Shown piece after piece: positions 8,140 through 63,378 of a stretch of DNA of 64,000 bases (position 1 is the stretch's first letter; each line of letters opens with the position of its first letter). Source of the stretch: Octopus vulgaris. Its lineage: Eukaryota. Under the pieces are notes generated by a model, which was not told the origin of the DNA, did no database searches, and saw only the letters and a program-made list of their open reading frames with translations. The DNA lies in the NCBI GenBank assembly GCA_951406725.2, contig OX597820.1, positions 6,634,001-6,698,000 of the forward strand, in the 5' to 3' direction. The position numbers and the translations under genes were made by a program.

Positions 8140-8445
8140 CCAATGGTTTATTACAGCGATCCAGAGCGCTCCACACGCGCTTAGTTTCTCTAACCCAAAA
8201 TGAAATGTAAAGTCGGCGCTGATGGAATTTGAACTCGGAACGTCGTACAAGACCAGCTGTCTTAGGAGCAAGGGTTAAGTCAATCATTCCGATTCCAGTA
8301 CCTGGCTGGTAAGTATTTTCTCGACCGTGAAGAATGAAATGTAAAGTTAACATTAGCTTAATTTGAACTCAGAAAATAGAATGCCGGAAGAAAGGCCGCT
8401 AAGCATTTTGTCCGGCGCATTAGCGATTCCTCCAGCTCACCGCCT
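8140..8445 (-). mobile_element. two diverged SINE S1 fragments
   Basis: Two aatttgaactc (B-box reverse complement) plus aaagt..ac motifs; head reverse complement at 8400-8445. Confidence 0.65.
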
Positions 8446-43289: not shown

Positions 43290-43455
43290 TACATTATTTA
43301 CATTCGACGGATATTTGTCCTCATCTTGTTTGTTGTTAACACAACGTTTCGGCTGATATACCCTCCAGCCTTCATCAGGTGCCTTGGGGAAATTTCGAAC
43401 ATGGGATCTCAATCATAAGGTATTTTTCAATGTTTCATTATTATTATTATTATTA

Positions 43456-43566: not shown

Positions 43567-43640
43567 TGGTCATATTTAATAATAACAATAACATCGAAAA
43601 ATAGCTTAGGAATGAGAACCCAGGTTTGAAATTTCCCCAA

Positions 43641-43686
43641 GACACCTGATGAAGGCTGGAGGGTATATCAGCCGAAACGTTGTGTT
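43641..43686 (+). ncRNA. type-I hammerhead ribozyme motif (family H4)
   Basis: gacac CTGATGA A GGCTG gagggtatat CAGCC GAAA CG TT gtgtt: intact core, 5-bp stems I and II, ACGT palindrome; predicted cleavage after 43681. Confidence 0.8.
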
Positions 43687-44510
43687 AACAACAAACGAGA
43701 ACAAATATCCATCAAATGTAAATAATGTAAATAGGGTAAATAACGTACCTAATTCCTCATTTCTTAAATTTAGAACCATGTTTATGTTTAATACAGTTCT
43801 TGGCAGGGATGTTTAGCCCCAAGTCAGCCCTAACTGAGAAAAAAAGAATTAAAATGACATGACGGCTCTGTAGAGTCATGGATCTTCCCATATATACTGC
43901 ATCTTGGACTCCATTATCTAAAGTGTTCCTTCGTTTCCAAGATATTAGGGTAAAGATTGCTCTTCCATCTTTCAGTCTGAATAAAATAACTGGGCGCAGC
44001 TGTTTAGGAGCTGGTGATAAGGCGCGGTTGGCTGAACATTCAATCTGGTTTGGCGACAATATCTCTTAGCGCTGGAGGCAAAAGTACACATACACACGCG
44101 CATGCAGAAATATACTCATAGAGATAGAGGAGAGAGAAATGTTAAACACACAGACAAACATTAACAGATACATACATAAACAGAGAGAGAGAGAGGGGGA
44201 GGTCGGAGAGGAGAGAAAGATAGACAGACAGAGAAGCAAACGAGAGAAAATTAAACGAGGGAAAACTATAAGACGTCTTATATCAAATAAGTTCGTATGG
44301 AATCAGTGACATAAAGCAAGTGGCACCAGAACGGCTCTGTCACAACACCTCATACCCATTTTCGGGGCATCCAAAGCAAGTTTCCACAGATAACAAATAT
44401 ACAGTGGTTGGCCACCTACCCCAGTATCCTGGCCAATATACTCTATGGATCAAAAGAGTAAGAATTCTAATACGATGGTACCAAATAGTGGGACCCCGGA
44501 CTGCGAGATA

Positions 44511-52035: not shown

Positions 52036-53468
52036 ACATTTTATCATAATATAATAAGAATCTCCTCTTCCACCTCCTCCTCCTCCATCAGTACCAGAAG
52101 TAGTAATGGCGACAGCAGTAGTAAGAGGAGAGACCGCAATAACACCATTACTAATTTCAATATTATATACCATTATTATCTTCGTTAATATCACCATTGT
52201 TGTCATTCGCCGTTCAGATTATTGTTGATGTTGTGTTTCTTGTTGTTGTTGTTGTTGTCATTAATGTTGATGTTCTGATTGATGCTGCATTTCTATTATT
52301 CTGTTCACTCCCGGGAATGCTATTATGACAACGCAGCACCGAATGGGTTAAATTCCTCAGTTAATCTTAGCATCATCTAACGGTAGACTGCGCTTATTGG
52401 ATTAAGAGGATACATTACTATTAACAACAACAACAGCATCAATCACAACAATAACTATATCTACATTAACAGCAACAACAGTGAATGTAAAATCGACAAA
52501 AGCAAACACAACAACAACAACAACAACAACAACAGCGAAACCAACGCTATCGCCAGCAACGAGGAGAACAACAGCAATTATAAGGATGCAAGCCAAAACA
52601 ATCACGGTATCGCTCGAAGGAAAGAATGGTTGATTATAACGTCGTGGTTAACCGAATCATTATATTTCTTGAGAATTTCATGCAAGCGATTGAGCATTTG
52701 TTCATATCTAAATAGAGAATGTTTAAATATTTAGTCACACCGTGAATCCGTCCTAATCAGTTTTATGTCAAGATTTGGCAATGCCATGGACCACTGCGTT
52801 GGATTTCATACACCTTAACCATTCCAGTGCAGTTCAGTCGGTTACTTCTTTGGTCTTTGTAAAACCATGAAAGCGAAATCTATGAGATAAAGGGAATTCG
52901 GTTATGAAGAGTACAATTAATCACGATGTCTTTTGATGTGTATGTAGGACCCCGACAGTCTTATAATGGAGTATCTTTCGCATTTGCATCATTCTAAATT
53001 CAATTCTTGTAAAGGTGCCATGAACTCTGCGAGCGGATATCACTCAATTTAGTGTAGTAGCTTTAATCCGTTACCCGGTTTAATATAACCACCAGGACGT
53101 TAGATGGCTTTGAAACTATTCACTGTCTTGCAGAGAAATTGGGGTAGGTTATGAGTGTGAGGAAACACACAGCACCCTACTATGCTGTTCGGTTCTTCAC
53201 AAAACCACATTATAGGCAGCCCGTCCTCCCGCTTTTGTTAAACCCAAATATAAATATGTGTATTTCGATTTAAAAGAAGGATTTTTTAAAAATTAGTGTA
53301 AACATGAGTAAGAGGTAATGGTGTCAAGAAGACCCAAAGGTGTCAGGTAATGCTGAGTAAGTGCTATGGACAGACTATAGTTAAGGTCCAGGCCCGGTGA
53401 TTATGCGAATGCGGAGTCCAACGTAGGTTGTATATCAGCATGTGTGTATATATAAAAAAAATTATCAG

Positions 53469-53622
53469 AATGAGATAAAAATCGAAGGTTGTGAAACATT
53501 TCAGAACATTTATAAATAGGTCTTACAGCCGTTTGCGGGATATTTTATTTATCCCGAAACAGCTGTAAGACCTATTTATAAATGTTCTGAAATCTTTCAC
53601 AGCATTGGATTTTTATCTCATT
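53469..53622. repeat. ~73-bp fold-back palindrome centred on hammerhead stem II
   Basis: Arms 53469-53542 and 53550-53622; centre cgggata-ttttatt-tatcccg followed by AAACAGCTGTAagacc. Confidence 0.9.
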
Positions 53623-53655
53623 ATGTTTATATATATATATATATATATAGCCCCA

Positions 53656-54046
53656 GGAGTGGCTGTGTAGTAAGTAGCTTGCTAACCAACCACATGGTTC
53701 CGGGTTCAGTCCCACTGAGTGGCATCTTGGGTAAGTGTCTTCTGCTATAGCCCCGGGCCGACCAATGCCTTGTGAGTGGATTTGGTAGACGGAAATTGAA
53801 AGAAGCCTGTCGTATATATGTATATATATATGTATATGCGTGTGTGTGTGTTAGTCCCCCTTGCATTGCTTGACAACCGATGCTGGTGTGTTTACGTCCC
53901 TGTCACTTAGCGGTTCGGCAAAAGAGACCGATAGAATAAGTACTGGCCTTACAAAGAATAAGTCCCGGGGTCGATTTGCTCGACTAAATGCGGTGCTTCA
54001 GCATAGCCGCAGTCAAATGACTGAAACAAGTAAAAGAGTAAAAGAG
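53656..54046 (+). mobile_element. SINE S2, full length
   Basis: Near-identical to 39033-39437. Confidence 0.93.
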
Positions 54047-54047
54047 A

Positions 54048-54087
<40 letters not shown>

Positions 54088-54714
54088 GTGTATTTATACA
54101 AAATATATATAGGGTGACAAGGGGAAGAGATAAGGAGAGCAAGGATCAGTCTGGCATTAATACGTTATTTGTACTTGGTATTTTTGATATAAAAGAAAGA
54201 GAAATGTTTTCTTTGCAAAAGTCTTATTGCAATCAATATGGCTCGCTTTTATGTCAGCAAAAGAAAATCTGAAAAGGAAAAGTGGATGCACTGTGCAACA
54301 ATATCTCTGCTTTCAATATTAAAAAATAACATGAGAGGTCATTGATAGCAGTGGAGATGCGATATCTCAGACACACTAGAAAATATATGTGGGTGTAGAA
54401 TATACAATAAATGGATATCAGAAAGAAAAGAACAAATAATTCTTAGAAAGAAGATATGTAGAAAAAAATTCAACACCGAACTGCATTATAAACTTTATCA
54501 TATGACGCAGAAGAATTGAAGAGAGCAAATAGGAAAGCATAAAGGACCTCTTCAAATATAAAAGAACAGAGACGAGCCTATTAAAGAATTAATTTCTTTT
54601 TAAATAATTAATTATATTCATGTGAAAGTATATCATAAGGAAGAATAAGTTTAGGATATTTGGAGGACAAGCAAAGATCAGTCAAAAATAGTGTGTAGAT
54701 AGGTCTATATATAC

Positions 54715-57676: not shown

Positions 57677-57710
57677 GTTACTCGGAGTTTCACGTTCCCG
57701 TTCGTCGGAC
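57677..57710 (-). ncRNA. hammerhead-like motif (family H3)
   Basis: Reverse complement gt CCGACGA ACG ggaa CGT GAAA CTCCGAG TA ac; element 57641-57710 abuts (TA)n. Confidence 0.6.
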
Positions 57711-60851: not shown

Positions 60852-61632
60852 AGTATGTACGTGTATGTTTGTTTGTGTATATATATATATATATATATAG
60901 TAAATGAATAAGAAACGAAGAACGACCACAAAAAAAGCAACGACGCAAGGACGTGTTACGTCTAAAATGCTAGCAGACGCTTAAGGAAGGACAGGAAAGT
61001 GGTTTTACGTTCCGAGCAAATGTAACTTAATATAATGAACTCTTGACTTTGTATATGTACATTTGTATATGGATATGTGTATGTTAGTATATTATTATAA
61101 TATTCTAATATATTGATTTGATTAACTGTAACATTATATATATGTATGTATATTATTATACATTATTATGCATATACGTATATATATATATATATAGGTG
61201 CATGTGTATATACGCTTATATGTATGTGCATATTATATATTATGTATATGTACTCATTCTTGTATGGGTGTACCTTGTCTGATATTCATATTTAGATTGT
61301 ACTTTATTCTCTAAAGAGGTCTTGGGATATATTTGTAAGTGTCTTATTTATAACCATATATTAACTTATCACACCTGGCTAATATGAACATAATGAGATA
61401 CTCATATCTACATGGCTGAAACAGCTGTAAGATATAGTTTATATTTATATTTATATTTATTTATACATATTGTACTTATTGTATCATATTACTCATTGAT
61501 GTGCACTGTTTTGTTCTGTACTTTTATGTTTGACCGTGATGTTCATATGTAGTTGGTTAATAAATTATGTGAAGGGGTATTATCTTGTAGTTGATTACTG
61601 ATTAAGGTGTAATTCTCCATTTTCTTATTTTG

Positions 61633-62465: not shown

Positions 62466-62967
62466 TAAACTTAGACTTAGATAAACTTAGATATGTTTCG
62501 ACCAATGATTGGTCCAGACCATGTCTAACTTAATAGCACCACCTGATAGGATTATTTGAATCCTGTTTAAGTCAAGTTTTGTTTATGGTCCATTCAAGTA
62601 GTGAGTGTTTGTTGGGTGAGTTGTATCCAATTATGGGTGGCTTATCTGGTATTCCTTGAAGGAATCTATCCAAACTCCGTTTAAAGTTGATGGGATCCTT
62701 TTCCTCTTTGATCTCTTTCGGGACAATGTTAAATAGGGCAGGGTCTGTTGAGGAAAAGAAATTATGTTGCAGTGTACATGTATGCTGTGATCTTGAATTG
62801 GGCAGGGGACGTATGGCCCGTGGTCCCAGTCTTGGATGAACCAGGTCGTTTGAGCAAAGTTGGCGGTATATTCTCCACATCGTACAAATGATGTACCGCT
62901 CACGGCGACGCTGGAGAGAGTAACGTTTCAAGGCTTTAAGGCGATCCCAATAATCGAGATGAGCCAT
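62466..62967 (-). mobile_element. CR1/L2-group LINE, 5'-truncated (ORF2 C-terminus plus tail)
   Basis: LDYWDRLKALKRYSLQRRRERY..LFNIVP..FKRSLDRFLQGIPDKP..GYN; tandem TCTAAGTTTA tail. Confidence 0.85.
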
Positions 62968-63065
62968 GCCTTATATATATACATATATATATATATATGA
63001 GTTTTTTGCGTAATGAGATAAAAAATACCAAGGCTGTATAGATATTAGAGCATTTATAGATAGAT

Positions 63066-63122
63066 GGTTTTACAGCTGTTTCTAGAATATTAATTAGTAA
63101 TAATATCTCTTCATCAGAGACG
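63066..63122 (-). ncRNA. hammerhead motif (family H5), diverged stems
   Basis: Reverse complement cgtct CTGATGA A gagatatt..aatattct a GAAA CAGCTG TA aaacc; downstream homologous to the 53550-53622 arm. Confidence 0.6.
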
Positions 63123-63378
63123 GTGTGAGAGGAAAATAAAGTCATAGTTAGTTTCGATGTGATACAAAATAGATAGTGAGGTGGAGGAAAGAAAACAGAT
63201 GCAAGATATGTTTGGTTATTGAGTTCGTAAATCCATTTTATAGGCATAATGTGTAATATTCCAATATCCTTTGAGTAAAATCCAAAAGTCTAACAGAGTT
63301 TAATATGAGTCCATCCAAATGTAAAGTTGGTCCTTCCCAGTAGGGAATTTATATATATATATATTTATATATAAAATA

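Follow-up and report, generated by a model that had tools for sequence, protein, structure and literature searches.

The insertion described here lies in a 64,000-nucleotide stretch of the Octopus vulgaris genome (assembly GCA_951406725.2, contig OX597820.1, positions 6,634,001 to 6,698,000 of the forward strand; hereafter the window, whose own numbering is used), in which two copies of a hammerhead-bearing repeat stand head to head around a palindrome at 53.5 kb. With moderate confidence, we read the two arms of this pair as two complementary DNAs (cDNAs) that were primed on opposite strands of the target and were likely joined through the 6-nt repeat of hammerhead stem II. The anatomy of such insertions, the rule that one arm ends short and the other long, the occurrence of arms that do not nest, and the pile-up of breakpoints 3' of the predicted ribozyme cut are direct observations. 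The step of the inversion joins at the predicted cleavage site appears to be new; the kind of insertion itself was already known. A literature search, with thin coverage of subscription journals, found no earlier mapping of inversion joins against the ribozyme and no report of a pile-up at its cleavage site.

Structure of the insertion and of its ribozyme

The apex of the palindrome (53537-53555) reads GGGATA-TTTTATT-TATCCC and is followed immediately on its 3' side by GAAACAGCTGTAAGACC. The original prediction had recognized a hammerhead stem II in this apex, and rightly so: the turn lies in the natural register of that stem, and the minus (long) arm carries the native loop. Over about 95 nt, 53447-53542 pairs with 53550-53645, and the DNA hairpin has a folding energy of -64.4 kcal/mol (z = -18), with 0 of 200 shuffled sequences equally stable. 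This palindrome is just the middle of a larger insertion, 53311-53645, whose minus-strand arm extends to 53311. When the G of GAAAC is numbered 0, so that the predicted cut falls between +11 and +12, the minus arm spans family positions -20 to +221 by alignment to the subfamily reference and has a tail of about 135 nt, and the plus arm ends at the shorter of the two 3' ends of the family (End A). The arms of the window copy are nested and have the same allele of a 3-nt indel. The 5' half of the hammerhead core (CYGAnGA), the replacement of which had been noticed before, is absent from both strands, and the palindrome thus contains no complete ribozyme. A candidate target-site duplication flanks the unit across an inserted repeat that resembles a short interspersed nuclear element (SINE) (Table 1); 11 of 2698 (TA)n-run ends match equally well, a chance level of 0.4%. 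A repeat search of the window was swamped by microsatellites. Taken alone, the window copy fits a cDNA that snapped back on itself, the pairing of two cDNAs, or a later central deletion.

Intact copies of the same subfamily read CCGATGA-A-GGGATA-TATAAAA-TATCCCG-GAAACAGCTGTA-AGAC, which comprises stem I (GTCT/AGAC), the core CCGATGA, one extra A, a 7-bp stem II, GAAA and the palindromic CAGCTG, with the predicted cut after GTA. This is the motif of a Penelope-type minimal type I hammerhead, and self-cleavage is predicted from it. Among 128 intact motifs, the core positions are 94-100% conserved except for the CpG pair at positions 4 and 5, and stem II pairs in 87-97% of copies; core position 4 is C, not U, in 100 of the 128, and the other type I core elements are all present. 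The assignment is based on motif anatomy; no hammerhead was among the 150 best of 263 Rfam matches, those listed being microsatellite-driven microRNA matches.

The homology that had been proposed between the palindrome and a locus at 63.0 kb was confirmed, the 63-kb copy matching the right arm with blastn E values of 1e-11 to 1e-15. That copy is a member of an older subfamily, with which it agrees at 283 of 330 positions and whose stem II loop is longer, and it carries CTGATGA upstream of stem II at 63117-63111 on the minus strand, likely through CpG decay of CCGATGA. It is decayed and shows no hammerhead fold (z = -0.17).

Distribution of the inversion joins

The genome (2.8 Gb in 227 contigs) was searched with a 29-nt motif that follows stem II, which gave 250 exact matches, and with a 23-nt motif near the 3' end, which gave 825 matches (0 for the reversed control). 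Copies of the family end on their 3' side in one of two places: End A lies at an internal TATATATA (about +87) and passes directly into (TA)n targets, and End B lies at about +229. Joins were mapped in two samples. Sample 1, unbiased as to the join, took the first 100 listed of the 825 anchors, from contig 1 and half of contig 2; an inverted partner was present for 51 of the 100 anchored arms and 49 were not inverted, and 45 joins were obtained after three duplicate loci and one complex locus had been dropped. Sample 2 comprised all pairs with anchors 26-175 nt apart (n = 164; 30, 61, 25, 28 and 20 in successive 30-nt spacer bins, the fourth of which holds the stem II turns), less 11 of the second bin that were missing from the listing; mapping covered 152, and removal of one unrelated pair and one with tandem anchors gave 150 pairs. 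One short and one long end were found in 144 of these 150, two short ends in 6 and two long ends in none, and 44 of the 45 unbiased joins likewise combine one End A with one End B. At two loci, L225 (= L123) and L192, the joins lie at +8 to +19 and the arms are separated by 51-54 nt of foreign, partly self-complementary filler.

The expectation of the original prediction that breakpoints would be non-random was borne out, with 90 of them within 12 nt on the 3' side of the predicted cut and 21 within the same distance on its 5' side (p = 2e-11). The step persisted when microhomology was assigned the other way (91 versus 19) and when only unambiguous ends were counted (42 versus 12), and 24 pairs had both ends in the block adjoining the cut on its 3' side, compared with 2 for the block adjoining it on its 5' side, with the microhomology on offer being alike on either side (0.71-0.90 versus 0.83-0.86 nt). 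In sample 1, seven inverted arms have their ends at 0-11 nt on the 3' side of the cut where 2.6 were expected (p = 0.017), and five end in the stem II zone where 3.5 were expected. The pile-up hints that the ribozyme acts during insertion. Palindrome strength was considered as the sole cause of the hotspot and rejected, because the 8-nt ACAGCTGT just 5' of the cut centres 0 of the 150 pairs and microhomology is equal on both sides.

The enrichment expected specifically at stem II was found in part. Both ends lie in stem II in 11 of the 150 pairs and at or 3' of +11 in 84, so that stem II is not the main site. In-register joins do recur: by eye, about 7 of the 150 pairs are of this type, the window copy included, as are 13 of the 36 palindromes with short spacers that palindrome searches had collected and, by eye, about 7 of the 50 listed second-bin pairs of a second hammerhead family described below. 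Sample 1 contains two joins of 45 with both ends in stem II, neither in register. By a rough hand estimate, in-register joins would be expected at about 0.4% of position pairs among the 25 pairs in which both arms pass the cut, and because they far exceed this, stem II is a real but minor hotspot.

Relation between the two arms

The original prediction explained the palindrome by a cDNA that snapped back on stem II and primed its own second strand. In full, one cDNA primed at the long end would fold back on stem II and copy itself to the short end, where the endonuclease would resolve the hairpin, and the End A arm could therefore contain nothing that the End B arm lacks. The End A arm, however, reaches further 5' in 67 of 144 pairs (by at least 5 nt in 53 and at least 10 nt in 44), and among the unbiased pairs it does so by at least 5 nt in 23 of 44, in some by more than 200 nt. 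Snap-back cannot yield these non-nested pairs unless later deletions explain them, and it gives no account of the near-symmetric unbiased pairs, which lean neither way (9, 9 and 3 equal). Nor can it yield in-register joins with the native loop on the short arm, of which there are five among the 11 decidable (the 13 comprise six on the long arm, five on the short arm and two unclear).

The 3-nt indel, located 4-6 nt 3' of the cut and found on every subfamily background, points the same way. The arms differ for it in 25 of 63 decidable pairs (4 were undecided), near the independent expectation; in 16 of the 63 the long arm has the bases and the short-end arm lacks them, and in 9 the short-end arm has bases absent from the long arm, which snap-back is again unable to produce. 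Subfamily-diagnostic substitutions mostly agree between arms, with a discordance of 0.11-0.23 versus 0.4-0.5 expected and a background of 0.08, CpG and end columns being higher. The idea that the arms often come from different subfamilies was thus not borne out, as only the 3-nt indel is independent. Together, indel and substitutions fit two passes over one RNA, or sibling RNAs, each pass slipping with a probability of about 0.3 by hand estimate.

Snap-back remains well suited to the window copy, which it fits in every respect, and a folding energy of -3 to -5 kcal/mol is predicted for the cDNA hairpin. The tail has been ascribed to endonuclease resolution by Craig et al. (PMC8557442), and the recurrence of in-register joins also speaks for snap-back. 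So does the coupling of the two breakpoints, which lie within 15 nt of each other in 21 of 44 pairs, compared with 5.5 by permutation; this coupling fits a shared template end, but fits fold-back also. Direct joins (90 of 150) have a mean microhomology of 2.0 nt versus 0.8 nt at shifted positions, a difference inflated by the optimisation of the split. As a general route snap-back is not supported, and overall we regard it as an unlikely explanation.

A longer palindrome could also have been remodelled after insertion, losing its centre by deletion between the two same-direction copies of GGGATA that are present in any head-to-head pair extending across stem II. Long palindromes are unstable at their centres, and such deletions predict a loop on either arm, as observed, and could un-nest the arms. 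They leave unexplained the regular pairing of a short with a long end, the step at the cut without richer microhomology, and the difference between arms in the 3-nt indel; moreover, many long palindromes persist. This makes remodelling, in our estimate, a distinctly improbable origin.

Self-priming on an antisense transcript, which Arkhipova et al. (2013) proposed for rotifer Penelope elements of like geometry (PMC3846280), would account for the coupled breakpoints. It predicts nested, identical arms and offers no reason for a pile-up at a site that is defined on the sense RNA, and we consider it very improbable. That a palindromic master resembling a miniature inverted-repeat transposable element spread as a unit is hardly credible, even though several palindromes have the same in-register centre, because centres vary widely and are spread over four or more subfamilies, the loop can be on either of the two arms, the ends are asymmetric with no fixed-length unit, and 49 of 100 copies are not inverted.

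A proposed mechanism with two cDNAs

In the formation by two cDNAs that we favour, the endonuclease of the element would nick both strands at a (TA)n site, and one nick would prime at the long end (End B) and the other at the internal TATATATA (End A). Both cDNAs would be antisense, so that their 3' ends could pair solely through inverted repeats or palindromes of the element. When both cDNAs read through an uncut hammerhead, stem II would serve as a pairing handle of 6-7 nt, an intermolecular version of snap-back. More often, synthesis of both cDNAs may halt 0-11 nt on the 3' side of the cleavage site, through run-off from self-cleaved RNA or through a stall at the foot of the folded ribozyme (stem I), and they would then join at the nearest self-complementary word of 2-10 nt. 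For a Penelope-type protein, nicking and extension of both strands have been reported in vitro, starting at two sites that bound the tail (PMC11167929).

As causes of the stop, cleavage and stalling are nearly equally probable on these data. Cleavage, at a little under an even chance, is favoured by the 23 ends inside the 3' strand of stem I compared with 6 just 5' of the cut (10 versus 4 when unambiguous). Stalling, only slightly less probable, is favoured by the 5-10-nt offset, the slip beside stem I and the C at core position 4 (U4C); other causes are rather unlikely. Tentatively, we further suggest that Penelope hammerheads cut in vivo and that cleavage fixes the 5' end where the two cDNAs run off, the step having been seen in two unrelated families, one of them with U4C.

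Several observations weigh against these proposals. The step is not sharp and peaks 5-10 nt downstream of the cut; for unambiguous joins within 4 nt of the cut the counts are 10 versus 4 (p = 0.18); the step is weaker in young subfamilies (20 versus 10) than in old ones (70 versus 11); and non-inverted truncations have no excess at the cut (2 of 49 versus 1.65 expected). The U4C core is reported to lower activity in vitro, with enough remaining in vivo for a viroid (PMC3088659), and hammerhead mutants of an anole element left insertion in vitro unchanged, with no reads ending at the cut (PMC11167929). In the window copy the arms are nested, the long arm carries the loop and the two arms do not differ in the indel, all of which is compatible with snap-back. 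The 6:5 ratio of loops could leave room for up to about half of the in-register joins as snap-backs, and later deletion at palindrome centres could also have un-nested the arms. Finally, no coding region linked to the window lineage itself was found.

For the inverted ends of Penelope elements self-priming has been proposed (PMC3846280), and cleavage by their hammerheads was dispensable in vitro (PMC11167929); mapping of the joins turns both matters into countable predictions: arms need not nest, stem II is a handle for two cDNAs, and a stop point lies at the cleavage site. All three lend themselves to testing with the in vitro system already at hand and in genomes with many Penelope elements. 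If the proposals are correct, inverted pseudo-long terminal repeats (pLTRs) arise from twin cDNAs rather than from self-priming, and head-to-head joins provide a genome-wide fossil assay of ribozyme activity.

Comparison with known elements

A general parallel is the twin priming of L1, in which, as reportedly described by Ostertag and Kazazian in 2001, two target strands prime two cDNAs and a join at microhomology gives rise to an inversion. The octopus pairs resemble it in having opposite-strand-primed cDNAs, as proposed here, that are joined by microhomology. In L1 the arms are different parts of the RNA, whereas both octopus arms cover the same part, which implies that the RNA was read twice or that two RNAs were used.

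Among Penelope-like elements, inverted copies with a one-sided tail are standard (PMC8557442, PMC3846280), and the function of the hammerhead is called unclear (PMC8557442). A close counterpart is Pen2a of Adineta vaga (PMC3846280; scheme in Craig et al. 2021, PMC8557442), which likewise has head-to-head 5'-truncated copies with an overlap at the inverted join, and whose inverted-pLTR insertions share the tail at one end, the AT-rich or (TA)n target and, in some copies, a duplication flanking the whole unit (PMC3846280, PMC8557442). The octopus family differs in its tail of about 135-140 nt, compared with the usual 30-40 bp (PMC3846280, PMC8557442), and in that no open reading frame (ORF) is tied to its lineage. 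The octopus joins, here placed relative to the ribozyme, speak against the self-priming put forward in the Pen2a study (PMC3846280).

The Anolis PAc/Poseidon system studied in vitro (Frangieh et al. 2024, PMC11167929) is similar in the nicking and extension of both strands, the two starts that bound the tail and the hammerhead in the terminal repeat. That study found cleavage to have no role in vitro and, in the text available, does not treat inverted copies; the octopus genomic joins step at the predicted cut. The ribozyme itself agrees with the minimal type I hammerheads of Penelope elements (Cervera and de la Pena 2014, PMC4209133) in its 4-bp stem I, 7-bp stem II, extra base after A9 and palindromic stem III; that work also reports paired hammerhead motifs 100-700 bp apart on opposite strands. 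The octopus motif, the cleavage of which is a prediction, differs from these in the C at core position 4 and in an A-G or A-A pair at the base of stem II. Metazoan non-LTR retrozymes (PMC7229834; bioRxiv 10.64898/2026.07.22.740005) are also non-coding hammerhead repeats related to Penelope terminal repeats; they form tandem monomers of 170-400 nt (PMC7229834), unlike the octopus copies, which are dispersed, 5'-truncated and often inverted. The available parts of the two retrozyme papers and of a review (PMC6765202) leave the joins unaddressed.

The repeat family and its surroundings

Coverage of the family declines toward the 5' end, as expected of retro-copied sequence, and five lineages can be distinguished. 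Flanks are AT-rich or (TA)n. Complex exact duplications surround 4 of 121 pairs under a strict test, versus 0.01 in shuffles; a looser test gave 38 versus about 30 and is confounded by (TA)n. Copies are dispersed and truncated, not short tandem monomers, and one two-unit tandem of about 720 nt was seen (L330), in which hammerheads at 8225 and 8943 come from different lineages; its layout could permit dimeric cleavage.

No ORF was seen upstream of four long copies (an ORF list was used for one, L330), and nothing coding was seen within about 620 nt upstream in the window lineage. In L394 (2588-2815, minus strand) and L395 (2528-3136, minus strand), broken GIY-YIG-like coding sequence is connected, across a non-coding stretch of about 1.3 kb, to the hammerhead of a sister lineage (68-86% identity in patches). 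The Pfam GIY-YIG match of these pieces has E = 0.1, below the cut-off, in one of three fragments; a homologue search with them was empty, and no reverse transcriptase was seen. The window repeat is likely the 3' end of a Penelope-like element, an identity suggested mainly by insertion anatomy and ribozyme type. Three raw RNA-seq runs from one study, aligned to a native copy at 85%, gave reads in both directions with no pile-up of starts or ends; these libraries look unstranded, are fragmented and stem mostly from related copies, and are thus uninformative on cleavage.

The coordinates are collected in Table 1. The repeats inside the (TA)n target are listed there as SINE-like, a provisional label. 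The 63-kb copy is adjoined at 62572-62970 (minus strand) by a 3' reverse-transcriptase fragment, which from its translation we take to resemble a long interspersed nuclear element.

Table 1. Coordinates of the head-to-head insertion, its flanks and the homologous 63-kb copy in the window
Feature	Position	Strand	Basis or remark
Candidate left target-site duplication TAAACATGAGTA, just outside the long end	53299..53310	+	10/12 identical to 54081-54092; first picked by eye
Long arm: stem II 5' strand, loop, hammerhead 3' half, short end, tail, long end	53311..53555	-	Alignment to subfamily reference
Tail between the two 3' ends (End A about +87, End B about +229), minus arm only	53311..53445	-	Alignment
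Hammerhead stem II and loop forming the apex; native loop orientation on minus arm	53537..53555	.	Sequence, mapping
TATCCC microhomology common to both arms	53550-53555
Short arm: stem II 3' strand, GAAACAGCTGTA, predicted cut 53567/53568, End A into (TA)n	53550..53645	+	Sequence
Unrelated, presumably SINE-like repeats within (TA)n target, between End A and right duplication	53650..54050	+	Sequence
Candidate right target-site duplication TATACATGTGTA	54081..54092	+
Older-subfamily copy, 5'-truncated, with complete but decayed hammerhead motif; core 63117-63111, GAAAC 63082, predicted cut 63071/63070	62988..63331	-

Further hammerhead families

A second family is represented in the window by a hammerhead repeat at 43350 (minus) and 43674 (plus). 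By eye, 43290-43410 (minus) and 43620-43780 (plus) form a head-to-head pair of it, with the core CTGATGA, an AACGTT palindrome and a tRNA-like stretch between the arms. Genome-wide, 68 pairs have 5-44 nt and 57 have 45-84 nt between anchors; a control for the latter bin gave 2 per strand. Of the 50 listed pairs of the first bin, 25 have lengths of 57-60 and an axis 3.5-5.5 nt 3' of the predicted cut, at GTTAAC, where 5 would be expected if axes were uniform; the hotspot coincides with an 8-nt palindrome, which makes this weaker evidence for the cut site than that of the first family. About six arms that cross the cut, for example in L355 and L352, have by eye lost 2-3 nt right at it, echoing the 3-nt slip of the first family.

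At 61383-61445, GAAACAGCTGTAAGAT follows an inverted piece that ends in ATAATGAGATA; the two are likely the decayed remains of a short pair, arranged head to head, from a further related hammerhead family. A third hammerhead-like family, with the core CCGACGA...GAAAC, occurs at 57691 and 15694, both on the minus strand, and cores with C at position 4 thus recur in the genome. The half-motif GAAACAGCTGTAA forms 79 palindromes genome-wide with spacers of 0-40 nt, several of them with other stem II sequences, which points to stem II turns in further families.
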